Positions 4,678 through 35,927 of a DNA stretch of 36,404 bases are shown here, one piece after another. This DNA comes from a virus. Taxonomy: Duplodnaviria; Heunggongvirae; Uroviricota; Caudoviricetes. The DNA lies in IMG/VR virus record IMGVR_UViG_2850756110_000006. One strand, 5' to 3'. The notes beneath the pieces are model-generated. The model saw only the letters and a program-made list of their open reading frames with translations, was not told the DNA's origin and made no database searches. Positions within the stretch are counted from its first letter, which is position 1, and each line of letters starts with the position of its first letter. The translations under genes were made by a program, and so were the position numbers.

Positions 4678-5097
4678 TCGTGTTTCCGCTTCGCCGGAGC
4701 GCCTTTTCGCGCCATGTGATGAGTTCGGTCAGGCTCATGGGATACAGTTCTGATGGCGGCCAGTGAAATATCACTGCCACATCCGCCATCAGGTCATCGA
4801 CCGAGAGATTTTTCGGAAACGTCACTGCACCGAGTTCGGCGACAAAAAACCGACCACCTTACCGGCCAGCGCCACAAGGTCAGGCAGTTCCAGCGCGGCG
4901 ACTTCCTGCTCGGTCAGCATCGGTGCCGTCATGCGCGGCAGCACCTTAATCAGTGCATCGACTTCAGAGTTCGCGACCGCAGCCAGACTGACACCGCGCA
5001 GCGTCCCGGCACTGGGTTTCATCAGCGTGACCTGTTCGATGACCTGCTCACCACGCTTGACCGGATTGTCCAGGGTAATCACATTTTCTTTGTTCAT
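4670..5097 (-). CDS. E+E': E+E' frameshift-extended tail chaperone (-1 frameshift at TTTTTTG, + coordinates 4843-4849)
   Basis: Hand translation of the -1 frame after the T6G heptamer gives VAELGAVTFPKNLSVDDLMADVAVIFHWPPSELYPMSLTELITWREKALRRSGNTNE, stop TAA at 4670-4672 overlapping the T start. Confidence 0.85.
4822..5097 (-). CDS. E: Tail assembly chaperone E (91 aa)
   Basis: Matches P2 gpE; ends ...GFLSPNSVQ. Confidence 0.95.
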   Translation of the reverse strand: MNKENVITLDNPVKRGEQVIEQVTLMKPSAGTLRGVSLAAVANSEVDALIKVLPRMTAPMLTEQEVAALELPDLVALAGKVVGFLSPNSVQ

Positions 5098-5154
5098 GGT
5101 TTTCTCACTTCTGAATCGGGGGTTAACCGGTCAGCCTGGCTGACCGGATGAAAA

Positions 5155-5673
5155 TCACAGGCCGATATTGCGGCGGTGTTGCTCCAGCCGGTCGACGCCG
5201 TTCACCTTCTCAATCATGTTGATGGTGTCGATTTCGACCAGCTCCTTACCGTCCATCGTCAGCCGGAAATAGGTGCAGACCACGGAGATTTTCGACTCGG
5301 TGTCTTCTCCCTGTTTACCCTCGCCGGTGTCGATTTCTTTCTGACGTCCACGCATGACCACCTCGACGGCCACCGTTTCGCCGGTATCGTCGCGCTGGTA
5401 AGAGCCTGCAAAACGAATCGGCACGGCATCCACACCGGTTGCGGCGTAAAGCTCCCAGATAACCGAATCCGGGAAGCCCCCGAGCGACCACTCCATTGAC
5501 AGCGCATCGTCATCAAGGCCGAGGTCTACCGGTGCGCTGCCGTTCATCCCCGCACCTCGATAGTTTTCGAGCTTACGGGTCAGTTTTGGCAGCGTGACGG
5601 ACTTTGCAACGCCCTGATAGCTGTAGCCGTTCAGAAAGACGTTCATTAACTTGAGTTTGCGCGGCATTGCCAT
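5155..5673 (-). CDS. FII: Tail tube protein FII (172 aa)
   Basis: Matches P2 gpFII in sequence and length. Confidence 0.95.
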   Translation of the reverse strand: MAMPRKLKLMNVFLNGYSYQGVAKSVTLPKLTRKLENYRGAGMNGSAPVDLGLDDDALSMEWSLGGFPDSVIWELYAATGVDAVPIRFAGSYQRDDTGETVAVEVVMRGRQKEIDTGEGKQGEDTESKISVVCTYFRLTMDGKELVEIDTINMIEKVNGVDRLEQHRRNIGL

Positions 5674-5685
5674 CGGTCAGGCTCC

Positions 5686-6876
5686 TTAATTGCTGTTAAC
5701 CGAGGTGACCAGATTTGCCAGGTATTTATCGGTGATACGCTGGCGCAGGGTCAGGTTTTCAAGAGGAGGCACCGGGGTATAGTCGTAGTCGATATACAGT
5801 TTTCCGGCCTTGAGGGTTTCCGCATCGTTGGATTCTTCGCTAAACCAGCAGGTCGCATCCACGATATAGCCGTTTGTTTTCAGCTCACGGAATTTGGCAT
5901 TGATGCCGTCAACGATGTCACGAATCAGCGTTGCGGTGATGGGCTTGTCCACCGCCCACATGTGCGCCTCAGCCATCGTGTCGGCCAGTACCTGTGCGGT
6001 GCGGGTGTAGTTTTCAAAGAGGAACAGCGGGTCATCAGAGCAGGTACGGTTACCCCAGAAGCGGAAACCGTCACGGCGAATCAGTGTTGTGACGCCTGAC
6101 TCGTTAAGCAGGTCAGCATCGGTGCCGGACTCCTGCAAATCCCAGAATACAGATGCGCTGATGCCGGTAACACCGTTCACCCCGACGTTGGACAGCGTTT
6201 TATGCCAGCCCTGCTCCTGGTCGATTTTGGCACGCAGACCCAGCGCACGGGCGGTAGCATACGCGGTGGCGGTGGTACTGGTGACCGTATCCCATGCGAG
6301 GAAATCCGGCCAGATGACCATCAGCTCACGCTGGCTGAAATTCTGGCGGTAAGCTTTCACCTCGGAAATGGTTTTACAGCCCCATGCGCTGATATACCCG
6401 AAAGCGCGCAACTTCTGACAGACTGATGCCAGTGCAACAGCCACCTCTTTGGTATCCAGTCCCGGTACGCCGAGAATACGCGGTTTAACACCGGTTACCG
6501 ACTCCGCCGCCAGCAGGGCTTTCAGTCCGGTGTACTGACCGTTTTCGTCGGTGGTGCCGATGATATTGGAAACGGTCTGCGCGAGTTTCGTTTCTTCGTC
6601 GTCGCCGGTGCCGTCTTCCACGCGCACAACAACGGTGACCGGTTTTGACTGGTCAGCGATGGCCTGCAACGATGCCGCCAGCGTGCCTTTTTTACCGGCC
6701 TTTGCAATTGCGCTCTGCACATTGGTAATCAGCACCGGTTTATTGAGGGGGAAGGTTTCCGCATCCGCATCGCTGGCCGTGCAGACCATGCCGACAATGG
6801 CGGTGGATACGGTTGAAATGACGCGGGTGCCGTCGTTAATCTCCAGCACCTGCACGCCGTGATGATAGTCACTCAT
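5686..6876 (-). CDS. FI: Tail sheath protein FI (396 aa)
   Basis: Matches P2 gpFI in sequence and length. Confidence 0.95.
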   Translation of the reverse strand: MSDYHHGVQVLEINDGTRVISTVSTAIVGMVCTASDADAETFPLNKPVLITNVQSAIAKAGKKGTLAASLQAIADQSKPVTVVVRVEDGTGDDEETKLAQTVSNIIGTTDENGQYTGLKALLAAESVTGVKPRILGVPGLDTKEVAVALASVCQKLRAFGYISAWGCKTISEVKAYRQNFSQRELMVIWPDFLAWDTVTSTTATAYATARALGLRAKIDQEQGWHKTLSNVGVNGVTGISASVFWDLQESGTDADLLNESGVTTLIRRDGFRFWGNRTCSDDPLFLFENYTRTAQVLADTMAEAHMWAVDKPITATLIRDIVDGINAKFRELKTNGYIVDATCWFSEESNDAETLKAGKLYIDYDYTPVPPLENLTLRQRITDKYLANLVTSVNSN

Positions 6877-6986
6877 CCGTTTAACTCCGTGGTTAATGGG
6901 TGCAACTATTTTCTGTTGTACAGAGCATGAGACGCTATTTGATCTGTCTGGTCAGTGGATGAAACAACAGATACAGAAAAGGCGGG
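6877..6986 (-). promoter_or_regulatory. Presumed late promoter region for the FI-FII-E-T-U-D operon (P_F), now abutting the IS2 end
   Basis: Position upstream of FI as in P2; no convincing Ogr-site consensus could be verified by eye. Confidence 0.3.
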
Positions 6987-6997
6987 TGGATTTGCCC

Positions 6998-7903
6998 CTA
7001 TATTTCCAGACATCTGTTATCACTTAACCCATTACAAGCCCGCTGCCGCAGATATTCCCGTGGCGAGCGATAACCCAGCGCACTATGCGGATGCCATTCG
7101 TTATAATGCTCGAACGCCTCTGCAAGGTTCTTTGCTGCCGTTAACCCGTCTGGTTTGGGCATGATACTGATGTAGTCACGCTTTATCGTTTTCACGAAGC
7201 TCTCTGCTATTCCGTTACTCTCCGGACTCCGCACCGCCGTGTTCTTCGGTTCAAGTCCCAACATCCGGGCGAACTGGCGTGTTTCATTAGCCCGGTAGCA
7301 TGAACCATTATCCGTCAGCCACTCCACTGGAGACGACGGAAGATCGTTGCCGAAGCGGCGTTCCACCGCTCCCAGCATGACGTCCTGTACTGTTTCACTG
7401 TTGAAGCCGCCGGTAGTCACCGCCCAGTGCAGTGCCTCACGATCACAGCAGTCCAGCGCGAACGTGACACGCAGTCTCTCTCCGTTATCACAGCAGAACT
7501 CGAACCCGTCAGAGCACCATCGCTGATTGCTTTCTTTCACGGCCACTCTGCCTGTATGTGCCCGTTTCGATGGCGGTACAGCAGGTTTTCGCTCAAGCAA
7601 CAGCGCATTCTGGCGCATGATCCGGTAAACACGTTTGGCATTGATCGCAGGCATACCATCAAGTTCTGCCTGTCTGCGAAGCAGCGCCCATACCCGACGA
7701 TAACCATACGTGGGCAGCTCTCCGATAACATGGTGTATACGGAGAAGCACATCCGTATCATCAGTGTGACGACTGCGGCGGCCATCCATCCAGTCATCGG
7801 TTCGTCTGAGAATGACGTGCAACTGCGCACGCGACACCCGGAGACAACGGCTGACTAAGCTTACTCCCCATCCCCGGGCAATAAGGGCGCGTGCGCTATC
7901 CAC
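6998..7903 (-). CDS. insD: IS2 transposase OrfB (InsD, 301 aa)
   Basis: [34 protein letters not shown]... matches IS2 InsD; integrase-like core. Confidence 0.9.
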
Positions 7904-8226
7904 TTTTTTGCCCGTCCATATTCAACGGCTTCTTTGAGGAGTTCATTTTCCATCGTTTTCTTGCCGAGCAGGCGCTGGAGTTCTTTAATCTGCTTCATGG
8001 CGGCAGCAAGTTCAGAGGCAGGAACAACCTGTTCTCCGGCGGCCACAGCAGTAAGACTTCCTTCCTGGTATTGCTTACGCCAGAGAAATAACTGGCTGGC
8101 TGCTACACCATGTTGCCGGGCAACGAGGGAGACCGTCATCCCCGGTTCAAAGCTCTGCTGAACAATTGCGATCTTTTCCTGTGTGGTACGCCGTCTGCGT
8201 TTCTCCGGCCCTAAGACATCAATCAT
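7861..8226 (-). CDS. insC: IS2 OrfA (InsC, 121 aa); an A6G slippery site at + coordinates 7904-7910 would fuse it to InsD
   Basis: [41 protein letters not shown]... matches IS2 InsC; CAAAAAAG on the minus strand just upstream of the insD ATG. Confidence 0.9.
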
Positions 8227-8399
8227 CTGTACTCCAATGACTAGTCTAAAAACTAGTATTAAGACTATCACTTATTTAAGTGATACTGGTTGTCTGGAGA
8301 TTCAGGGGGCCAGTCTAACGGGCAATTCGCCCGCCTGTCCTAGTTTGTACTCACTCATTTTCCGACTGACAATTTACATAGCCAAAACGCTATCAAATC

Positions 8400-8433
8400 T
8401 GACAGTCTGCTTTGAGCGAAAAGCAGACTGTCA
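8400..8433. repeat. Perfect palindrome (14-bp stem, 6-nt loop), motif copy A of a three-member family
   Basis: TGACAGTCTGCTTT-GAGCGA-AAAGCAGACTGTCA read directly; no adjacent T-run. Confidence 0.7.
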
Positions 8434-8548
8434 CGCGTTGAAGTTAATTGTATTACTTAGATAAACACTATCATTTTCCTGACGTTAAGTTGTATCTTTG
8501 ATAGGATTAAAAAACGTATAGATAGCTTATGCTACTGAGGGAATAAAA

Positions 8549-9358
8549 ATGACGAAAATTAGTGAACGATGGAAGCACAATGGCATTACTGAAGGTTATT
8601 GCAATATTTGTGGGAAATATGGCTTGCTCACAAAAGATCATGTTCCTCCAAAGTGCGCCATAACCTTAGGCCCTGTTTTGCAGAAAACAGTTAGCGAATT
8701 TTTTGGTATTCAGGAACCAGTTAAACCATTAAATGCTAAAAATGGCTCTTATTTCAGAACCATTTGCAGCCACTGTAACAATAAGGTATTAGGTGGGCTC
8801 GATGTTGCAATTGAAAATGTAACAAAGTCCTTTAAAGAACAGTTAAGTCGATATATGAATGGTATGAATGTATATCCATTCATTAGAATACCTTTTGATA
8901 GCATATCTTTCACTAAGGCTATGATTGGGCACGTGCTATCAGCAACTTCAGTTGAAGATTGTAAAAAAGAACCCGTAGATAGCCCCTTCTATACACCTTT
9001 AAAGGATTATGTTTTGGGTAAAAATTCAAGTTTTGAGGAAACTCATGATATTTACTACTGGTTTTACCCACACAGAATGCACATATCCGCTCAAAGTGTA
9101 GCATTTATGAACGAAGGACATGTGGCATTTATTTGTGCTTTACATTTTTTTCCTATCGGTTTTATTATCACAATGAAAAATGAAGGAACATACCCTGCCC
9201 ACTCTACAAAATTAGAACTTGAAGATAAATTCCTTACATTTAATATGACCTCTATAAATTATGAGTATACGACATTTCCATTTGTAAATCTTAAGGGAAA
9301 CCAAATGTATGCGATAAGCAACGGTCATACTTGTGTGAGTTATCCAATAATTAAGTGA
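8549..9358 (+). CDS. AT-rich accessory protein (269 aa) with N-terminal HNH/His-Me-finger-like motif (CxxC...DHVPP...CSHCNNK) and an unrecognised C-terminal domain
   Basis: Intact ORF with GAGGGA SD 7 nt before the ATG; C18-x2-C21, D30-H31, C-x2-C-N-N-K spacing resembles HNH nucleases; base composition far more AT-rich than flanking phage genes. Confidence 0.75.
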   Translation: MTKISERWKHNGITEGYCNICGKYGLLTKDHVPPKCAITLGPVLQKTVSEFFGIQEPVKPLNAKNGSYFRTICSHCNNKVLGGLDVAIENVTKSFKEQLSRYMNGMNVYPFIRIPFDSISFTKAMIGHVLSATSVEDCKKEPVDSPFYTPLKDYVLGKNSSFEETHDIYYWFYPHRMHISAQSVAFMNEGHVAFICALHFFPIGFIITMKNEGTYPAHSTKLELEDKFLTFNMTSINYEYTTFPFVNLKGNQMYAISNGHTCVSYPIIK

Positions 9359-9412
9359 CGGCTAAATCATACAATCTACGCATGTTCACTTTCTACATAT
9401 ACCATCTATAAT

Positions 9413-9437
9413 GTCCGCTGTTGGCACAAAGCAGACG
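9413..9437. repeat. Imperfect palindrome, motif copy B, between the convergent 269-aa and 425-aa genes
   Basis: GTCCGCTGTT-GGCAC-AAAGCAGACG, related to copies A and C. Confidence 0.55.
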
Positions 9438-9498
9438 CCCACTCTCACGCGAATGCTTTGCCCTTGACTTGCCAACAACCGTATCGCTTGCTCCGCAA

Positions 9499-10776
9499 CT
9501 ATGGTTTTTTATTAGAATCTTCGCCACTAAATAAATTATAATAAATTGATTTTATTAGATATCTGTCAGAATCTATATGGTCAGCACGAGTAGCATGCTC
9601 TAATGTTTCAAATGCTAGGGTTTGTGCGGCTTCAGCAAAAATTCCAGGCCAACCCTTACTCAGCATCGACAGTCCTTTAAGGACCCTTATCTGAATTTCC
9701 CTCATACTGGCACCATCGCGCGCAACAGGTGAGAAAAAGTCTTCAAGTAGATCGTTATTCTGAAGTGGTGCAACATGTACAGAAGGATATTTCACTTCTA
9801 TTTCATCAGATTTATTCTGCGCGTAAGCGGAAAGTATACGTACACCTCTGCCAATGACATCAATGGCGGTTCCAGGATCGTTCACTGCGGGGGAAAGGGC
9901 TCGGCAGGCTATTTCGGCCATGACGCTAAGACAAAATCGGGGGTCCTGAGCAAATGAACGTACATCCGAGACAATAATCGTCTCAAGTAAATCGGTGCTG
10001 ATTGATGACTCCTGGCCCTGACTCAGGTACAAAACTGGCGTGGACGGATGTATGAAACTGCCCGGCTGCGCCACGAGGTATACATGACGGGGATCATTGG
10101 TCAGCAGCTTGCTGAGTTTCACCATATCAACATATTCAACATAGCCAATCTTTTTCGGATAAACTGCAACCGTTCCTTTCGGCTGTTCATTGTTCTCAAG
10201 CCATGGATATCCGCCGAGACAGGGATTTCTTGCTCTCGCAATAAATGTTTCGATGGCCGCCTGTTCTACTTTTGCCGTTGTCTCACCAACCCTCCCCAGA
10301 GAGGTCAAATGCTGTATCCAGCGAAGCAATGTGATGAGGATTAAGGCAATGACAACCAGTGTTACAATGAATAAAATGACTCTCCCCCTTTCTCCATAAG
10401 CTCCCATATTGAGGGCAATAATCCCTACCAGACTGAAGAGAAAAGAACCGATGAAGGTGGCCAGTACATTTTGTGTGGTGACGTCTTCAACAACTAAACG
10501 AGTAGCTCTGGGAGTCACATTAGTAGTGGCTGAACCGTAGGCTGTGACCATGATGCTCAGCGAAAATGTGGTCACTGCCAGCATACTCGATGCCAGTATG
10601 TTCAGAATGTTATCGACTGCTTCCGCACCAACCTTCACGGAAACCGACTCAGGTATCATTGATTTAAAAAGAATTGATAAAAGGGCCGTTATTATTGCGA
10701 CAATTGCGAATAACGTTGCCCTGAACCATAGTTTTTTAAATGTCTGCTTCAGCATCCATTTCCAGCGTGAAATCAT
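9499..10776 (-). CDS. Membrane protein of unknown function (about 425 aa): four predicted N-terminal TM helices plus a roughly 270-aa soluble C-terminal domain; possibly DUF2254-like
   Basis: Intact ORF; start chosen at the second ATG (10776), which has a GAGGGA SD, the track start at 10791 does not; hydrophobic segments ATLFAIVAIITALLSILF, ILASSMLAVTTFSLSIMV, VLATFIGSFLFSLVGIIAL, VILFIVTLVVIALILITLL; family assignment from memory only. Confidence 0.7.
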   Translation of the reverse strand: MISRWKWMLKQTFKKLWFRATLFAIVAIITALLSILFKSMIPESVSVKVGAEAVDNILNILASSMLAVTTFSLSIMVTAYGSATTNVTPRATRLVVEDVTTQNVLATFIGSFLFSLVGIIALNMGAYGERGRVILFIVTLVVIALILITLLRWIQHLTSLGRVGETTAKVEQAAIETFIARARNPCLGGYPWLENNEQPKGTVAVYPKKIGYVEYVDMVKLSKLLTNDPRHVYLVAQPGSFIHPSTPVLYLSQGQESSISTDLLETIIVSDVRSFAQDPRFCLSVMAEIACRALSPAVNDPGTAIDVIGRGVRILSAYAQNKSDEIEVKYPSVHVAPLQNNDLLEDFFSPVARDGASMREIQIRVLKGLSMLSKGWPGIFAEAAQTLAFETLEHATRADHIDSDRYLIKSIYYNLFSGEDSNKKP

Positions 10777-10839
10777 TCTGCATTCCCTCATATTGCAGCC
10801 GGGATAAATAAATGCCGCCTCTGTGGCGGCATGTTGCTG

Positions 10840-12840
10840 TTAACGAACCAGATGCAGGAAGTGCAGGTGTTTTTCGTACTGGTCCAGTATGTCATTAATC
10901 AGCTGTTCCTGATTCCAGCCCATTACATCATAATTTTGGCCGCCCTCTTTGAGATAGACTTCAGCGCGATAATATCGATGTTGTTCACTCTGCTGCTCAT
11001 CATTATCCAGCGCAGCGAGCGCGAAGGTCGGTGAGTTATACCCGCGAAGCCTCACTTCATATATATAATTCAGCTCGTTGCCCAAATCGACTTCAAGGCG
11101 AATACGATCCTCGGCGGCGTCACTGATGTGGCTTATCGTTCCCTGCTTGTTAAGTTCCTCCTGAACCAGCGTCATGGCGGGTTGGATAATGTCGTCCATA
11201 AAACGTTTCACAAGAGAGCGCTTCGGCAAATACGCGATATTGCGTAACCTTCTCTGCCAGGGAATTGGGTTACGTGCAGCCGTAGGAGCAATAGTCGCCA
11301 TGCTAAGGCTTTCACGCTTGGTCAAATCCCGACGCAGGGCTTTTAACAGTCCGTATATGGATATTAATAAGATAACTGAGAAGGGCAATGCACTCGCTAT
11401 CGTTACGGTTTGCAACGCACTCAGCCCCCTGCGATCAGCAGGGCAATAGCAACAACGCCCATGAGCAATGCCCAGAAAATTCGCTGCCAGACGGGCGTGT
11501 TTGCCACCCCACCTGATGCCAGAGTATCCACAACCATTGCCCCGAATCAGCAGACGTTACAAAGAAGACGATGACCATCGCCATTGCAATGAATGACAGC
11601 ACGGAAGAGAACGGGAAATGCTCCAGGAAATTAAACAGGGCAAGCGCAACATCCTGCTGAACGGTATTGGCGAGGTCAGTGGCGCCCTGGTTCATGATGA
11701 GATAGATGGCGCTGTTTCCAAACACCGTCATCCACATGAGCGTAAAGCCGGCGGGAACAAACAACACGCCAGTCACGAACTCACGAATTGTCCTGCCGCG
11801 GGAAACGCGTGCAATGAACATACCTACAAACGGCGACCATGAAAGCCACCATCCCCAGTATAATAATGTCCAGCCCCCAGCCAGTTGCTCGACTTGGGTT
11901 CATACGCGTAAAGGTTGAACGTTTTACTCACCAGTTCCGACAGATAACCACCCGTATTTTCCACAAATGACTTCAGCAGAAGCACAGTGGGACCCAGGCA
12001 CAAGACCAGCGCCAGGAGCAACACCGCCAGGCCCAGATTAAGCTCAGACAGGATGCGTATTCCCTTGTCCAGGCCGGACACCACCGAAATCGTCGCTAAC
12101 CCCGTGATGACCACGATCAAAATGACCTGTACCGTTTCATTGATGGGCACGCCGAAAAGATGGTTCAAACCGGCATTCACCTGCAATACACCGTAACCCA
12201 GCGATGTTGCAACGCCAAAGACAGTGCCTATCACGGCGAAGATATCAACCGCGTGGCCTATAGGCCCGTAAATGCGATCGCCGATAATGGGATAGAGCGC
12301 AGAACGCAGCGTTAAAGGCAGACCGTGACGGTAACTGAAAAAGGCCAGAATCAGCGCCACGATGGCATAAATTGCCCATGCGTGCAGACCCCAGTGGAAG
12401 AACGTCAGGCGCATGGCTTCCTTCGCTGCCGCAACGGTCTCTGGAGTGCCGACAGGTGGCGAAAGATAATGCATCACAGGTTCGGCAACGCCAAAGAACA
12501 TCAGGCCGATCCCCATCCCTGCCGAAAAAAGCATCGCGAACCAGGAGTGGTAGCTGAAATCAGGCTGCGCATGGTCTGGGCCCAGCTTTATATCACCGTA
12601 ACGTGAGAGTCCAAGGAACGTGACGCTCAGTAAAATCAGGGCCACAGCAAGTATGTAGAACCAGCTGGCATTCGTGAAGATTTGTTGCTGAAGTAGTTTA
12701 AAATTTTTGTCGGCGACATCCGGGAATACGGCGGCAAAGGCGACAAGAAGGAAAATTAGCAAAGCAGATGTAAAGAATACCGCTTTGTTAACCTGGCTTG
12801 TAGACTTCTTTGGGGTTGTATCATTTTCACTCATAATCAT
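10840..12840 (-). pseudogene. BCCT-family (BetT-like) betaine/choline transporter gene broken by at least three frameshifts
   Basis: Fragments 11824-12840, 11435-11821 and 10840-11415 carry consecutive BCCT segments, including [32 protein letters not shown] recovered only by switching frame near 11880; further shifts near 11510 and 11425. Confidence 0.8.
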
Positions 12841-13082
12841 TTATTCCATTAATTAAATCCGCACTGGATAGAAGGTACTACCTCTCACAGAGTAGCAAAG
12901 TTCAACTGGCTATGCGGGATTAATCGGAATGCATGGTGGAATGAGTGCCGATACAAATCATCCTATATTCTAAGGAGTTTTAAGTTACTCAGCCTGCCAA
13001 TTACTGGGGCATTTAATTTGTATGATCTGTATCAAAGCTGGGATATAAGTTAAGTGAAGTATATTAGGCACGAATTACCAGC

Positions 13083-13112
13083 GTCTGCTCTTGGCACAGA
13101 GCGGACTGTCAG
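13083..13112. repeat. Imperfect palindrome, motif copy C, between the transporter pseudogene and G
   Basis: GTCTGCTCT-TGGCAC-AGAGCGGACTGTCAG, related to copies A and B. Confidence 0.55.
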
Positions 13113-13155
13113 ATTAGACTTTACTCTGTGCTATAGGTATGTCAGCTCATACAAC

Positions 13156-13683
13156 TTATTGCGGCATTTCCGGCCATTCAGGATTTGCAGGATCCACACG
13201 ACTGACCAGAACGCTGTAGCGTTCCCATGCTTCCAGTCGGCTGCGCTCCTCATCTGTTGCCATATTCAGCCTGACAGCGCGCTCCAGCGGCAAAATCACG
13301 GATTCAGCTTCGGAAAGTAAAGTTGCCTTTTGTGATTCTGCCAGTTGCTGCTGTTCGTCTGCCGTATAAATCCGCTTAATCACGGCACCATCCTTAAACA
13401 TCCATTTACCTGAGTCATCAGCACGTCGGTTGGCGGTAATATCAGGAACCTCGACAACGCTAAAACCTTCAGGGTTAAGCGTTGAAGCATCTCTGGTGAT
13501 GCCGACAATTATATTATTCTCGTCGTAAACAATCTTTATCGTGTCTTCCTGAAAATTACTTACTTCCTCATACCAGTTTTTTCCGTCTTCAGACCATAAC
13601 CAGATAACATCAAAATTTTTTGTCAGTTGATATTGGGCAACAGTTTTGGGATTACCCGCAGTAATATTTTTTAAATGCTGCAT
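13156..13683 (-). CDS. G: Tail fibre assembly protein G (175 aa)
   Basis: Matches P2 gpG in length and sequence. Confidence 0.9.
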
Positions 13684-13686
13684 AAA

Positions 13687-15777
13687 TTACACCTGTGCGA
13701 CGTTATACCATGTGCCATTAATGTATTTTTGTATTGGTCTGAATACTGCCGGATCATCGCCATCAACTTCGCCGACAATGCCAAGCCCTGTAATTACATG
13801 GCCTGATTTCTCATACATCACGCCTTTTTGCATGGTCTGAACAACACGCGTACCCAGGCGAACATCTTTCACATAGCGGGAATCAAAATTTCCGTAATCT
13901 GATGGGTTAACACGTCCAGTAACACTCAGGCCATGCCCCATTGACACTCCGCCATTGGCGTTATTGATAGTCAGCGGTCTTAAACCGTTCCATGTTCCAA
14001 ATTTATCGCCAGAGGCCGTCAGCATTAAATATGTGCTGCCGCCATCATTCCTGATAAAGAATCCATAATTGCCATAAGCAATGCGCAGACCATTAGCACT
14101 GAGCGATGTAATTTCACCTCTTGAACGAAGACCATAAGCAGAGCTGAGTGATAATTCTTCCTGAGCATCAGTATTACCTGTCGCCCAGCGAATTACCCCG
14201 CCCTGTACTGTTTCATGCCAGATAGTGTCTCCTTCTCCACCACGAAACTTTCTGAGATATTTTTTGCCGCCTCTGGTGCCGGAACATAAGGCCGTAGACA
14301 TATAGGCATTCTGGCTTCCACTATCCTGATTAATAGTTCCAGACATAGAATCGCCGTAACGGTTCCAGTCACGCCGCCAGCCAGGAGCATAGTTGTCCCC
14401 GTGGTTAATATAAGTAAATTGCGCGCTTGTAGCGCCCCCACCGCTTGATGTTGTTGGTGTGGTAATACGAATAGTCATTGCAGACTTTATGCCCATTACC
14501 TCAATAACAGCGCCAGCAAGATGAATATTGCCACAGCCAGTATCCGTAATGATTTTGTTATTTGCATATGACCAGGAGCCTTTGCACATCCAGTACGGAT
14601 GATTAAATGCACCACGGGAATCCAGCCATTCAATAAACTGAGCGGTTGTCCAGTTTCCGGCTTCAGTGCTCAAAGCGCCGCTATAAGCACGACAGGCACC
14701 GATATTTTTCGTGAAGGTATCCTTTCCCGGAATATCCGCACCGTTCTGATCTTTCTGAAGACGTTTTTCAGCATTGTCATAGGCAGACTTCACCGCCTTT
14801 GGCGTTGCAGCCTGCGTTTCAGAATCACTGTTGGTGGCGCTACTGAGCTGGACAAGACCTTTTCGCGCCGTGGTGGCATCCTGTGCAGTGTATTTCCCGT
14901 TAGCAAGGTCATATGCTGTCTTAACCGCCTTTGGCGTTGCCGCAAGCGTTTCAGAATCGCTGTTGGTGGCGCTACTGAGCTGAACAAGGCCTTTTCGCGC
15001 TGTTGTGGCATCCTGTGCAGTGTATTTCCCGTTAGCAAGGTCATATGCTGCCTTTACCGCTTTCGGCGTTGCGGCGAGCGTTTCAGACGTGCTGTTAGTC
15101 GCACTACTGAGCTGAACAAGGCCTTTTCGCGCGGTGGTAGCGTCCTGTGCGGTATATTTCCCGTTAGCAAGGTCATATGCGGCCTTAACCGCTTTCGGAG
15201 TTGCAGCCAGTGTTTCAGACGTGCTGTTGGTCGCACTGCTTAACTGAGTAAAACCTTTTGCGGTCAGCGAGGCGTCAGGGTGACGTCGTGACTGTTCATG
15301 TTCTGCAATTTTGTCATCAACGTAATCCTGCGTTGCCATCACCGTTGTGGTGTCAATGGTCAGCTCCACTGAGGCCACACTGCTGACGATGATGACCATG
15401 CGGCAGGTCTGCGAACGCCCTGAGCCTTCGGCAAGGGCTGGCTTATAACTTTCGGCCATGTTCGCCACGGCAATTAGCGTTCCCGCATCATCGTACAGGC
15501 CAAGTTCACGCATCCAGAAACCGCCCACCTCCGGCGGAATAACCAGCTCTGCGATAATATAATTACTGTTTCGTTTGTCCTGGCTGATTTTGTTCAGCGC
15601 ATGTCGCCAGACTTCATGGATAAGCCCGGTCTGTCCGGCATCCGGGACAGGCAATTTACCACCGCCATCCCCGACGGCCATCGTGGTAATGTTGACCTTC
15701 CGCCCTCCCGGTGCGGTTGCCGCTGCCAGCTTTGCTGCACCGGCAGTGGTGATAACGGTTTTGAATTTTGTGCTCAT
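13687..15777 (-). CDS. H: Tail fibre protein H (696 aa) with internal tandem repeats and a variable C-terminal receptor-binding region
   Basis: Conserved P2 H N-terminus MSTKFKTVITTAGAAKLAAA...; about four 44-aa repeats (QLSSATNSxSETLAATPKAVKAAYDLANGKYTAQDATTARKGLV). Confidence 0.9.
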   Translation of the reverse strand: MSTKFKTVITTAGAAKLAAATAPGGRKVNITTMAVGDGGGKLPVPDAGQTGLIHEVWRHALNKISQDKRNSNYIIAELVIPPEVGGFWMRELGLYDDAGTLIAVANMAESYKPALAEGSGRSQTCRMVIIVSSVASVELTIDTTTVMATQDYVDDKIAEHEQSRRHPDASLTAKGFTQLSSATNSTSETLAATPKAVKAAYDLANGKYTAQDATTARKGLVQLSSATNSTSETLAATPKAVKAAYDLANGKYTAQDATTARKGLVQLSSATNSDSETLAATPKAVKTAYDLANGKYTAQDATTARKGLVQLSSATNSDSETQAATPKAVKSAYDNAEKRLQKDQNGADIPGKDTFTKNIGACRAYSGALSTEAGNWTTAQFIEWLDSRGAFNHPYWMCKGSWSYANNKIITDTGCGNIHLAGAVIEVMGIKSAMTIRITTPTTSSGGGATSAQFTYINHGDNYAPGWRRDWNRYGDSMSGTINQDSGSQNAYMSTALCSGTRGGKKYLRKFRGGEGDTIWHETVQGGVIRWATGNTDAQEELSLSSAYGLRSRGEITSLSANGLRIAYGNYGFFIRNDGGSTYLMLTASGDKFGTWNGLRPLTINNANGGVSMGHGLSVTGRVNPSDYGNFDSRYVKDVRLGTRVVQTMQKGVMYEKSGHVITGLGIVGEVDGDDPAVFRPIQKYINGTWYNVAQV
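14773..15261. repeat. Tandem 132-bp coding repeats (about 3.7 copies) inside H; coordinates approximate
   Basis: 44-aa period in the H protein; repetitive shadow ORFs on other frames (14599-15243, 14790-15044). Confidence 0.8.
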
Positions 15778-15787
15778 TATTCCTCAC

Positions 15788-16318
15788 TTATCCGGGGTAA
15801 ACCGTAATTACATCGCCGTCGTAAGCCACACCACCGGCGAACAGGTAGCCGGGAATATCCCGGGTAATGTTCAGGCCAATAAGATGACGGCTTGCAGGTT
15901 TGGCATCAGCAATAAGCCGTTCCATTTCCTGATACATTGCCTCTGTGATGCCGCTTTCCAGTACGCCAATATCAAGCCGGAAGGTGCCTGGCGGGTCACT
16001 GGTTTCCCACCACTCCGTCACGTTGATGAGATAGCCCAGCGGCTCCACCACACGCCGGATTGCACCTATAGTGCCTTTATGACAGTGGATGAAATAGGCA
16101 TCGCGAATAACGGCGCGTTTGGTCGCTTCCGGCCACTTTTCATCCCACCTGTCGACCGAAAACGCCCACGCCAGCCACGGCAGCAGATTTGCCGGACAGG
16201 TATCCGGGTTCCACAGATCACGAATACTGACCGGCGTTTTTTCAATTTCCGCACAGGCTTTTGCGGCGGCGACTTCAAGCGGTGATGAGCCGGTCGGCAG
16301 CAGGCGCGAATCACTCAT
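15788..16318 (-). CDS. I: Baseplate assembly protein I (176 aa)
   Basis: Matches P2 gpI. Confidence 0.95.
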   Translation of the reverse strand: MSDSRLLPTGSSPLEVAAAKACAEIEKTPVSIRDLWNPDTCPANLLPWLAWAFSVDRWDEKWPEATKRAVIRDAYFIHCHKGTIGAIRRVVEPLGYLINVTEWWETSDPPGTFRLDIGVLESGITEAMYQEMERLIADAKPASRHLIGLNITRDIPGYLFAGGVAYDGDVITVYPG

Positions 16319-17219
16319 CCGAGCCTCCGGTCACGACGCGGTATTCGGTACAGAAAGACGCCTGCGTACTGTTGAGCACAATGTCGGCCAGTGGTGCAGC
16401 CAGTTCGACACGCTGCACGCCTTCCACATGCAAAGCGGCATAAATGGCAGACAGACGGATGTCGCGCCCCAGCCGGTGCTGTGCCGTGATGTACGCTTCC
16501 AGTTTTTTCACGGCGGCAGCGCGGATGGGTTCGCTTTCGGGACCAGGGTAAAGGTAAAGCGTGGCGTTTATCTGGTATTCAACGATGGCGGCAGACTGCA
16601 CGGTCACGCGGTCGGCTACCGGCCTGACGTCCTCGCCATTAAGGGCGTTACGCACCACCGCCAGCAGGTCTTCGGATGCGACACCGTTATTTTCACGTGA
16701 CAGCACAGAGATGGTGACGCAGGCCGGAGAAGGACTGGTGACAGAGATATCTGCGACACGCCCGTCGGCACTTCGACCATGATACTGATAGGCCCCCACC
16801 GACCCGGCGACGCTTAAACCTTCAAACGCCTGCTGAATACGCAGACGATAATCGGTGTCAGATTCCATCTCGGCCGGTGTCGGCGGGAGGGTCGAATCAT
16901 CTGCCGGGGTGATAATCAGGCGCGCGGTGTTGTAATTGGCACCAATCACATCAAGGTCATTACCGGCAGCACAGGCCAGCATCACCGCCCGTGCGGCCTC
17001 ATTCACACGCTGACGCCAGATAAGCTCACGATAAGCATTTTCCTCCAGCAGTTTGACGAGAGGCTCAGATTCAAGCGTCAGGGTACGGGCGACCGCCTCC
17101 TGCTGGTCTTCCGGGTAAAGGGAAATCAGTGTCGCCTTGCGTTCGGCAAGAATGGTTTCAAAGTCCAGCTCCTCGACCACATCCGGTGCGGGTAGCTGGT
17201 TCAGGTCGATAATCGGCAT
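16311..17219 (-). CDS. J: Baseplate assembly protein J (302 aa)
   Basis: Matches P2 gpJ. Confidence 0.95.
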   Translation of the reverse strand: MPIIDLNQLPAPDVVEELDFETILAERKATLISLYPEDQQEAVARTLTLESEPLVKLLEENAYRELIWRQRVNEAARAVMLACAAGNDLDVIGANYNTARLIITPADDSTLPPTPAEMESDTDYRLRIQQAFEGLSVAGSVGAYQYHGRSADGRVADISVTSPSPACVTISVLSRENNGVASEDLLAVVRNALNGEDVRPVADRVTVQSAAIVEYQINATLYLYPGPESEPIRAAAVKKLEAYITAQHRLGRDIRLSAIYAALHVEGVQRVELAAPLADIVLNSTQASFCTEYRVVTGGSDE

Positions 17220-17223
17220 GGTT

Positions 17224-17571
17224 TCAACTCACAGGGATGGTTAACGAAAGTGGCTGGCCGGTGTCGTTGTGCTGACCGGTTAACGTGACCGTCATTCGCC
17301 CGTCAAAACTGCGCGCCGTGGTGACGGATGACAGGGTGACGCGGGGTTCCCATTTCAGCACTGCCATGTAACAGGCGACCTTAATCTGCAACTCAAGCGC
17401 CGGGGTCTGCGGCTGGTCAATCATTGATGCCAGCAACGAGCCGTAATCACGACGCATCACCCGTGAGCCGACCGGTGTGCGCAGGATATCGCCGATACTC
17501 TGGCTGATATGCTCAAGGTCAGTGACCGTCAGGCCATCACTGCGATTCATTCCGAGATAACGCGCTGTCAT
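17224..17571 (-). CDS. W: Baseplate protein W (115 aa)
   Basis: Matches P2 gpW. Confidence 0.95.
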   Translation of the reverse strand: MTARYLGMNRSDGLTVTDLEHISQSIGDILRTPVGSRVMRRDYGSLLASMIDQPQTPALELQIKVACYMAVLKWEPRVTLSSVTTARSFDGRMTVTLTGQHNDTGQPLSLTIPVS

Positions 17572-18283: not shown

Positions 18284-18949
18284 ATGAGTACTTACTTTTT
18301 CTCGTCAGAAACAATGAAAGAATTGTTCAAAGATTATCTGGTCTTTTTGAACACGCTGACTCCCGGCACAAACTTTGAATCAAGCAGAAACAAAATAATT
18401 GCTCAAGCAATAAACTTCATTTCCGAAAACCCTGAAGATTGGGACAAAAAATCCCAGTACAACATTGCTATGATTGGCGACACCTTTAAAAGTTTCTTAA
18501 GAGAAAAGGGAGAAGATAACAACAGCATCAACCTTATATTCACTTGCTTTTTTAGATTTATCATTGAACCAAGCATTCTCTCTCCGGAAATAGAGTCTCA
18601 CTTTTCACCACTAAGAACCATCAAGGATTTTGCTCTGTATAACTATAATGAATTCGATGAGCGGAGCAGAGCACAGATAGACTTTTCTCTTAGAGAACTG
18701 CCATTAGCAATGGTTAAAGAAGTTTTAAGCTCCAGCAATGTTGACACATATAAAAAATACATTGATAGTTTAAACGAAGGGCGTCAATTTTTCGAAAAGT
18801 GCGACTCCTTCTTAAAGGAGCAACATGCCAAAATAGAGTCAATCAAAGAGTCATTAAAAGGGTATGAGGTCGCATTTAATTTTGTTGGATTGTTTGAAGG
18901 CTTTAATTCACTTGGCAAAAAGAAAGTGAAATCATGCTATCAAGAATAA
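18284..18949 (+). CDS. Hypothetical protein (221 aa), first gene of an AT-rich cassette inserted between V and S
   Basis: Intact ORF with AAGGGA SD-like sequence upstream of the ATG at 18284; strongly AT-rich; no recognisable motif; the track start at 18188 lies inside V and is rejected. Confidence 0.65.
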   Translation: MSTYFFSSETMKELFKDYLVFLNTLTPGTNFESSRNKIIAQAINFISENPEDWDKKSQYNIAMIGDTFKSFLREKGEDNNSINLIFTCFFRFIIEPSILSPEIESHFSPLRTIKDFALYNYNEFDERSRAQIDFSLRELPLAMVKEVLSSSNVDTYKKYIDSLNEGRQFFEKCDSFLKEQHAKIESIKESLKGYEVAFNFVGLFEGFNSLGKKKVKSCYQE

Positions 18950-19353
18950 TTCTTATCATCTTGGCTATAATCATTCCCTCCCCGCTGATATACTATGGAA
19001 TGCATAAATTACCAGCTCTCGAAACGACAAATGCTGCCACATATTTTATGTCAGCACTACCTTTTGCATCAGTTACATTGATTTTCATGTATTACTTTAG
19101 AGTTGTACTGCTAAATCATATATCGTTACGAACTCAGATTATGCAAATAGAACTCAGAAAGAGCCTTTGTCAGTTCATTCAGAGTTATAGCGACTATTCC
19201 TCAGAGATAAGGAAAAACAATCCGGAAGCGCTTTCAAAATTCGAAGACGTAGTATTTTCAAACATCATGCTATCCGATGATAAGATACCATCTACATTTG
19301 ATGGCATTGAGCAAATAGCATCGTTAATCAATTCATTAAAAAATGGAAAGTAA
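18934..19353 (+). CDS. Small membrane protein (139 aa, two predicted N-terminal TM helices), overlapping the preceding gene by 16 nt
   Basis: ATG at 18934 overlaps the upstream stop at 18947-18949; hydrophobic MLSRIILIILAIIIPSPLIYYG and YFMSALPFASVTLIFMYYFRVVLL. Confidence 0.65.
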   Translation: MLSRIILIILAIIIPSPLIYYGMHKLPALETTNAATYFMSALPFASVTLIFMYYFRVVLLNHISLRTQIMQIELRKSLCQFIQSYSDYSSEIRKNNPEALSKFEDVVFSNIMLSDDKIPSTFDGIEQIASLINSLKNGK

Positions 19354-28647: not shown

Positions 28648-28668
28648 GCCGCCTGCGGGCGGCTTTTT
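28648..28668 (+). terminator. Rho-independent terminator after Q
   Basis: GCCGCC-TGC-GGGCGGC followed by TTTTT. Confidence 0.7.
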
Positions 28669-28811
28669 ACACCCCGTCATCACGCCCTCATACGCTCACC
28701 ACCGCACAAAACACCCCGCAGACACACCAACGGCCCCGGCGAACAATCTAAACGCCATCACGACGCGCTCAGACGCTGAAAAAATAAAATCAGCACCACC
28801 GCCAGCGCGCA

Positions 28812-28830: not shown

Positions 28831-29045
28831 CGCCCGCTTTATGGGTCGGTTTTAATGCAGGTGCACGAATACACCGGAGGCGCGCCGGCACTGGTGGCGC
28901 TCAGACGCAACAGGGGAGGAAAACGCATGCAATTGAATGCATTTCTAGGCACACCTAAAAATGAAAAAATGTTATGACAATTAATCATTTTAAACACACT
29001 GATTAAGGGTAGAATTCTCCTAGTAAAATCATAGAAAAACCGCTA

Positions 29046-29974
29046 TCAAACCAGGCTTTTGCCTTGCTTCATTTTTTTAGATGAGTCTAAAAATTTGAAA
29101 TTATCATTAGATGAAAATATTCTTTCTGCGGTATGCCGAATGACTGAAGTATTGAAGACCGCAGCCTGCTCCTCATTACAACTGAATACACCCTCATGAC
29201 CATCAAACTCGCCCGCCAAAAGAAGGTTTTTTGATACTGGGAACAAAACTAAAGTGTCTTTTACACCAAACCCGGGGAATAAGGGCCTCGTGCTAATTCA
29301 GGATTAGTCCACATTAAGCAAACTGGGTTATCTGAAGTTATAAATGACCCTTGCCCATCAGATATGGTCATAAGTGACCAGTTGCGTTGATGCAACAACT
29401 TGGTGATAACAGGTACACATTTCATTTCCATATCTATCATGAACTCTCTGATTACATTGATTTCGAAATTATCCCCATCCACAAAATTTTTAATTTTTTC
29501 GTAAGCGAGATCATATGGCAAAGACTCACCCATTTCTTTCTCATAAGCTAATTTGCAATCGTCCCAACGCTCAGCCGAACTAACTGAGGATTTCATGATA
29601 AACTTTGCTATTTGTTTCAATGGAGATGATAAATGTTCTCGCTGAGCAGGCGTACGTATTGCCAATAAGGAAATAAACTCCAGAATAACATCTTTGGTTT
29701 CGCCTGAAAACTCGCCCCCTCCTCAAGTTTTCTTAAATGAGTAGCGACACTGCCTTCAAACTCTGCAAGAGAACTCTCGAGATAGTTTGGGTCAACTCCA
29801 TCCAATTCTAATCGGTTGAAATCTCTAACCCCCCCCGACATTGCGAGTATTACTCTCAAAGGTTTTGCGCTCCTTTAAATCTATTACAGTTAATTTTGAT
29901 TTTTTCCCCCCATTACTTGTAAACCCTTTCAAATAACATTGGGATAAAAAATGATGATGCCTTGCAACACTCAT
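29046..29974 (-). pseudogene. AT-rich DUF4238-like gene at the tin/old position, split into four frame-shifted fragments
   Basis: N-terminus MSVARHHHFLSQCYLKGFTS resembles the DUF4238 HxxPQFYLKxF motif (from memory); frame breaks at a G8/C8 run (29829-29836), near 29617-29665 and near 29246-29261. Confidence 0.65.
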
Positions 29975-35900: not shown

Positions 35901-35927
35901 AATCTCCCTTACACGGGCTTATTTTTT
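35901..35927. repeat. P2 att core copy (27 bp), int-proximal prophage junction
   Basis: Exact direct repeat of 145-171. Confidence 0.85.

Follow-up and report, generated by a model that had tools for sequence, protein, structure and literature searches.

The window analysed here, a stretch of 36,404 nucleotides from a tailed-virus record (Caudoviricetes; IMG/VR IMGVR_UViG_2850756110_000006), carries on its minus strand three consecutive ORFs, 11824-12840 (338 aa), 11435-11821 (128 aa) and 10840-11415 (191 aa), that together cover one gene for a transporter of the BCCT family. The locus raises the question whether this is a host gene that was captured by a phage and is now decaying, as a sequence-only reading had proposed, or whether the gene belongs where it is found and is intact in the organism. 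The features of the gene itself are as follows.

10840-12834, minus strand: BCCT (BetT-subfamily, candidate BetU-like) transporter gene, three ORFs as assembled, 665 aa with three bases restored
10812-10832, minus strand: terminator-like hairpin with a T-rich tail, directly past the BCCT stop codon (consensus match only; promoter and terminator scans overall performed no better than on shuffled controls)

The first ORF matches positions 1-302 of the Pfam BCCT profile (PF02028) and the second positions 321-415, the conserved BCCT motif quoted in the sequence-only reading being the start of the second ORF (11435-11821). Alignment to intact copies located three −1 sites, in accord with the claim that the frame must be changed three times to recover the gene, and restoring one C per site yields a 665-aa product that is 100% identical to WP_005032116.1 of Escherichia coli S10; thus, the BCCT gene is real and not a chance pattern. 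The repaired protein scores 543.6 bits against TIGR00842 (cutoff 407.55), which places it in the BCCT family, and matches solved BCCT structures, those of BetP and CaiT included. The BetT-like assignment also stands, given that the protein reaches 751.8 bits against the BetT subfamily model NF007399 of NCBIfam (cutoff 695; residues 8-665 on profile positions 4-663 of 675) and is 42% identical to E. coli K-12 BetT over its full length, C-terminal extension included. Like BetT, the choline:H+ symporter of E. coli (b0314), the cargo protein is of similar length (665 vs. 677 aa), aligns end to end and has a C-terminal extension of ~160 aa, whereas, unlike betT, its gene is not linked to betIBA, resides on mobile elements and is always accompanied by a DUF2254 gene.

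A further parallel is BetU, a second BCCT osmolyte transporter of E. coli that varies among strains and has been described, for uropathogenic E. coli, as specific for betaine (Ly et al. 2004 via PMC12890032; PMC4411257). Some fragments identical to, or clustered with, those of the cargo gene are annotated at source as 'secondary glycine betaine transporter (BetU)', and these annotation names, on which the assignment stands, provide a lead that the cargo transporter is a candidate BetU. If intact, the protein would be expected to import betaine or choline as an osmoprotectant in the lysogen, with the BetT-like cytoplasmic C-terminal domain regulating the transporter; osmoprotectant uptake for the lysogen is the most likely function of the intact cargo.

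Comparison with intact homologues also bears on the donor. Orthologues with 80-94% identity are common in other genera of Enterobacterales (Serratia, Klebsiella aerogenes, Xenorhabdus, Pantoea and Morganella). The donor of the cargo was probably another member of Enterobacterales, not E. coli. The two alleles found in E. coli are 93% identical in DNA and 98% identical in protein, which indicates that the BCCT gene is under purifying selection.

The position of the gene inside the tail region, correctly noted in the sequence-only reading, does not by itself call for a capture event. The window is a P2-like (Peduoviridae) prophage by its gene order, D-U-T-FII-FI, then the cargo, then G-H-I-J-W-V, and the transporter lies between tail genes, in the gap between G and FI, i.e. 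the Z region, where P2 itself carries fun(Z). The features that flank or share this region are the following.

13156-13683, minus strand: homologue of P2 gene G (tail fibre assembly, Caudo_TAP), flanking the Z region
9499-10776, minus strand: DUF2254 membrane-protein gene, 425 aa (WP_000625667.1), intact, the constant partner of the BCCT gene
8549-9358, plus strand: hypothetical gene, 269 aa (WP_000161640.1), the third cargo gene in the P2 context
6987-8318, minus strand: IS2 insertion (orfA 7861-8271, orfB 6998-7903), separating the sheath gene from the cargo
5686-6876, minus strand: homologue of P2 gene FI (tail sheath), flanking the Z region

Acquired genes of P2-like phages are found in three places, the Z, orf30 and TO regions (PMC3091744), and in this prophage all three are occupied by cargo, so that in this phage family a transporter 'inside the tail operon' is what one would expect. 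Moreover, almost the same prophage occupies this chromosomal location, flanked by yegQ/ogrK and yegR, in E. coli S10 and Res13-Lact-ER01-35, and in both of them the entire G-FI cargo (269-aa gene, DUF2254 gene and BCCT gene) is intact. On gene order and sequence matches, then, the BCCT gene is ordinary accessory ('moron') cargo of the P2 Z region and not a 'captured host gene'; the view that its presence is unusual and reflects capture of chromosomal DNA is not supported, given the known cargo slot, the intact copies in the S10 and Res13 prophages and the occurrence of the same unit, with fixed ends, elsewhere. The cargo resembles fun(Z) of P2 in that it occupies the same G-FI slot, consists of non-essential foreign DNA and is flanked by the same two types of hairpin (PMC3091744), but differs in content: fun(Z) blocks phage T5, whereas the cargo here is a transporter plus two genes without a match to known defence systems. 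A search of PADLOC-DB at E ≤ 0.01 returned no defence-family match for the BCCT, DUF2254 or 269-aa protein, and the last of these also had no match in Pfam or NCBIfam.

The IS2 copy lies ~110 nt upstream of the FI start codon and may cut this gene off from its late promoter; S10, Res13 and two sister Shigella assemblies are without it.

The distribution of the unit extends well beyond P2-like prophages. A megablast search of the region against 50,697 phage records gave no match, so that at this sensitivity the cargo is seen in prophages of bacterial genomes and in plasmids but not in deposited phage genomes; the BCCT-DUF2254 unit was found also in lambdoid prophages, Mu-like prophages and qnrS1 plasmids. 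On plasmids of ~70-130 kb, the module lies alongside genes for a 200-aa tyrosine recombinase and a 476-aa hypothetical protein. In one of these (NZ_CP021681.1, 6001-13451; hereafter L027), it is situated a few kb from qnrS1, ISKpn19 and IS26, so that the transporter travels with a resistance region. The second allele (93% DNA identity, ~1550 E. coli records) is represented in NZ_CP070111.1 (L026, 5739-8137), on an IS-rich chromosomal island near fecABCDE and nanXY, with its DUF2254 partner truncated by an IS911-family element.

If the gene is standing cargo, the breaks still have to be accounted for. In a base-by-base alignment of 2,301 nt, the window differs from intact copies in three positions, all of them losses of a single C, with no substitutions.

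11874-11878, plus-strand C run: frameshift site 1, C6 to C5, after 11873; a G run on the coding strand, at about codon 320
11540-11543, plus-strand C run: frameshift site 2, C5 to C4, after 11539
11425-11429, plus-strand C run: frameshift site 3, C6 to C5, after 11424

On the coding strand, these are two G6 to G5 contractions and one G5 to G4 contraction. Site 1 directly precedes the most conserved stretch of the transporter, site 2 is private to the window assembly among three sister Shigella assemblies, and the run at site 3 is the one most frequently contracted in other assemblies. All three breaks had been attributed to short G/C runs, which agrees with the run lengths of six, five and six C in the intact copies; of the proposed break positions, those near 11880 and 11425 were right, but the one near 11510 was about 30 nt off, the true run being 11540-11543.

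We consider it most probable that the three frameshifts are consensus errors of a long-read (PacBio-type) assembly, in which undercalling of G/C homopolymers may have removed one base at each of the three runs, and that the BCCT gene is intact in the organism. Sequencing error had been mentioned as a caveat in the sequence-only reading, and the comparison across assemblies makes it the likelier explanation than decay. Among 5,426 complete E. coli genomes searched with megablast, 1,959 contain the BCCT region, and 408 records, chromosomes as well as plasmids, match at ≥99% identity; these are annotated with an intact 'BCCT family transporter' (665 aa, WP_005032116.1) adjoining a 'DUF2254 domain-containing protein'. 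A 524-nt query spanning the three sites was found at ≥99% identity in 407 RefSeq complete E. coli records, and a contraction was shared by one of them (NZ_CP024269.1); among the other records listed, all three runs were of full length. Similarly, in a census of exact sequences, at least 1000 contigs had the intact 665-aa protein, as against 1-22 for each of the fragments.

The source of the window sequence points in the same direction. Over the 12.6 kb compared (window 4840-17415), it is 100.000% identical to GenBank CP026805.1. The accession CP026832, from the same block, is described as a PacBio sequence of S. dysenteriae 14 ATCC 49346, one of a historical Shigella strain set (PMC10132075), from which we infer that the platform of CP026805.1 is PacBio-type as well. 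The same prophage is present in CP026872.1 and CP026832.1 with 0-3 substitutions over ~19.7 kb. The G6 contractions at sites 1 and 3 are common to all three Shigella assemblies, and each of the other two has −1 contractions of its own at G5/C5 runs: in CP026872.1 in baseplate gene V, in the tail tube gene and twice in the DUF2254 gene, and in CP026832.1 once, in the DUF2254 gene. Beyond these, in the 3.5-kb BCCT-DUF2254 module of ~20 assemblies that carry fragments, all changes in runs of at least five bases are contractions and none is an expansion; these assemblies were found via the fragment proteins, but at least 22 of the contractions played no part in the selection. They span P2, lambdoid, Mu-like and plasmid contexts and both alleles. 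Such a graded, one-directional and assembly-specific pattern fits homopolymer undercalling and is hard to obtain by mutation.

Comparison of the window with the Res13 prophage shows a dependence on run type and length: four of the five G/C runs of six or more differ, as do two of the 21 G/C runs of five and two of ~62 A/T runs of six or more, and no substitution occurs in the 1-kb blocks that contain the changed G/C runs of at least six bases. A test for concentration of changes in the BCCT gene (for G/C runs of five, 1/1 changed inside vs. 1/21 outside) carries little weight, because the DNA aligned to S10 has no C6 runs apart from two in that gene and because slippage has the same dependence on run length. 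In one respect the pattern departs from expectation: a run in a neighbouring cargo gene, DUF4238, is longer in the window (C7 to C8), and pure undercalling does not predict expansion. Overall, the breaks are like known long-read indel errors in being single-base deletions in runs, worst in G/C, that vary among near-identical assemblies and split genes into adjacent ORFs; the platform here is deduced from a neighbouring accession.

The foremost alternative is recent pseudogenisation, whereby the transporter would be dispensable in this Shigella lineage and the two G6 runs, perhaps along with the G5 run, would have slipped in replication, as part of the gene loss in Shigella. In E. coli, no runs mutate more readily than those of G/C, Shigella genomes are known to accumulate pseudogenes, and real replication slippage depends on run length and G/C content just as undercalling does. 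The sharing of both G6 contractions by the three Shigella assemblies is expected of an ancestral mutation, too. Contigs from Logan add to this: those from SRR30896128 and SRR14347927 (L013 and L014) have the two G6 contractions alone, with no other indel in the 3.5-kb module and with neighbouring genes that look intact, so that the contractions would be real there if the runs are Illumina, and over 1,801 nt, site 1 included, the window has an identical match in a contig from SRR31369786. Other cargo of the prophage is broken as well, by the loss of four bases (AAAG) at 18918, a change that does not involve a homopolymer, and by three run changes in DUF4238, and IS2 is inserted beside the cargo in the window. 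However, a decaying gene should differ from its intact relatives in more ways than this one does: there are no substitutions in the 2.3 kb aligned or in the 1-kb blocks around changed runs, and contractions are the only type of change seen. Furthermore, contraction of these same two runs recurs on two alleles and in no fewer than four unrelated genomic contexts, so that pseudogenisation would require repeated parallel mutation, and most of the assemblies that bear the contractions also have private contractions elsewhere, essential phage genes included. Looked for in independent accurate data, the disabling changes were shared, in any part, by the single RefSeq complete record of 407 mentioned above, and signs of relaxed selection (substitutions, mixed indels, truncation) were not found across the 2,301 nt, where every change is a −1 in a G/C run. 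The suggestion that capture was followed by decay is thus at odds with the absence of substitutions, the restriction to −1 changes, the private −1 changes in the sister assemblies and the abundance of the intact form, and we regard recent pseudogenisation as unlikely.

It is far less probable still that the transporter is switched off and on by the G6 runs as a contingency (phase-variable) locus. The same runs do differ between assemblies of different lineages, but no +1 variant was seen in runs of at least five bases among the ~20 fragment-carrying assemblies, the runs are constant in ~400 RefSeq records, and restoring the gene would take joint reversion at three separate sites. Phase-variable tracts are typically longer than 5-6 bases, and their length would be expected to vary in both directions; the runs here have 5-6 bases and, in the ~20 assemblies, showed contractions alone. 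That the broken gene is expressed by programmed ribosomal frameshifting, or as separate functional fragments, has the presence of the ORFs and nothing more in its favour and is hardly credible, given that three compensating shifts would be required, that the first break falls just ahead of the most conserved stretch of the transporter and that the intact single-ORF form is overwhelmingly the commonest.

Misreading of an intact gene, which thus remains the preferred explanation for the BCCT breaks, probably applies to DUF4238 also. This gene of the TO-region cargo (~29045-29973, minus strand) has changes at 29273, 29714 and 29829 (G5 to G4, C6 to C5 and C7 to C8, respectively) and no substitutions in its kilobase; the intact Res13 copy scores 725 bits on the PADLOC model DUF4238-Pers, and a DUF4238 protein from this P2 hotspot has been reported to protect against T7 (PMC9122126). 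The orf30-region cargo presents a different case. A gene for a 347-aa hypothetical protein (18314-19353, plus strand), which matches no family, is broken in two where one unit of an AAAG repeat is missing, at 18918; E. coli S10 and Res13 have it intact, and neither of the two sister Shigella assemblies shows the 4-bp loss, both having one long ORF there (357 aa as called). As a 4-bp loss is untypical of homopolymer error, the frameshift at 18918 may be real. Elsewhere, the intergenic region past the portal gene (28663-28732) has a T6 to T5 change relative to both E. coli prophages and, relative to S10 only, a C5 to C4 contraction and one extra G, and a T6 to T7 expansion occurs at 35922, near the integrase end; these differences fit assembly noise or real divergence alike.

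The remaining question is how the transporter reached the Z region. The borders of the cargo segments coincide with three copies of a 24-nt palindrome.

13083-13106, no strand: palindrome GTCTGCTCT TGGCAC AGAGCGGAC, marking the cargo's G-side end; similarity to other replicons stops at 13106-13109
9413-9436, no strand: palindrome at the junction of the DUF2254-BCCT segment and the 269-aa-gene segment
8405-8428, no strand: palindrome GTCTGCTTT GAGCGA AAAGCAGAC, marking the cargo's FI-side end

The palindrome consists of 9-nt arms and a 6-nt spacer, GTCYGCTnT-(TGGCAC or GAGCGA)-AnAGCRGAC, and its three matches in the window compare with 0.01 expected. The ends of the DUF2254-BCCT segment are identical (window 9410 to 13106-13109) in every replicon examined, and the 269-aa-gene segment extends from 8405/8414 to 9428. 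In plasmid L027, the genes for the 200-aa tyrosine recombinase and the 476-aa protein lie between the two segments, and the 9413 site of the window is an exact hybrid of two sites of this plasmid, with the crossover within TTGGCACA. The same two hairpin types border fun(Z) in phage P2 (L151) and a different Z-region cargo in another P2-like prophage, and these palindromes likewise flank the BCCT-DUF2254 unit where it occurs in lambdoid, Mu-like and plasmid settings. More broadly, the 24-mer is present in over 120 stretches, which come from Alpha-, Beta- and Gammaproteobacteria as well as other phyla and in which it often brackets 1-3 genes; besides the window and L027, the loci comprise L006, L029, L151 and L030-L149.

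Clustering of the genes adjoining the palindrome in Alphaproteobacteria identified them as ordinary housekeeping genes, which favours a dispersed REP-like repeat over a dedicated cassette system. The palindrome therefore looks, from its sequence and distribution, like a dispersed REP-like repeat that may serve as a recombination point. In common with REP/BIME and with dRS3/NIME of Neisseria, it is a short dispersed palindrome that brackets variable gene segments; it differs from these in that the 24-mer of the window spans several phyla and has no associated enzyme identified, and its sequence is not known to be related to E. coli REP. The 200-aa tyrosine recombinase was considered as the enzyme acting on the palindrome and rejected, as it co-occurs at 2 of 120 palindrome loci. 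Window positions 8300-13200 had no match in Rfam at E ≤ 1, a full-text literature search for the palindrome strings found no paper, and comparison of the borders by eye with the consensus sites revealed no resemblance to attC ends (RYYYAAC ... GTTRRRY) or to 11-6-11 XerC/XerD sites.

A more specific proposal, which we put forward tentatively and consider rather doubtful, is that the transporter came not by capture of host DNA but as a cassette bounded by the 24-nt palindrome, and that the palindromes could be recombination points for cargo swaps at the P2 Z-region hotspot and between mobile elements. The mechanism of swapping at P2/P4 hotspots is still to be elucidated, according to a preprint (bioRxiv 10.64898/2026.02.27.708500).

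A transporter at this known P2 hotspot is an ordinary cargo, and the locus is foremost a caution: what appeared to be a captured host gene in decay is most likely an intact gene, common as cargo of prophages and plasmids, that was misread at three short G runs. Pseudogene counts in such long-read assemblies can be inflated, notably in Shigella, where gene loss is a central theme. For the lysogen, the cargo may add an osmoprotectant uptake system, which would be routine lysogenic conversion, and the wider interest of the locus lies in the conserved palindromes that bracket exchangeable cargo at the P2 hotspot.
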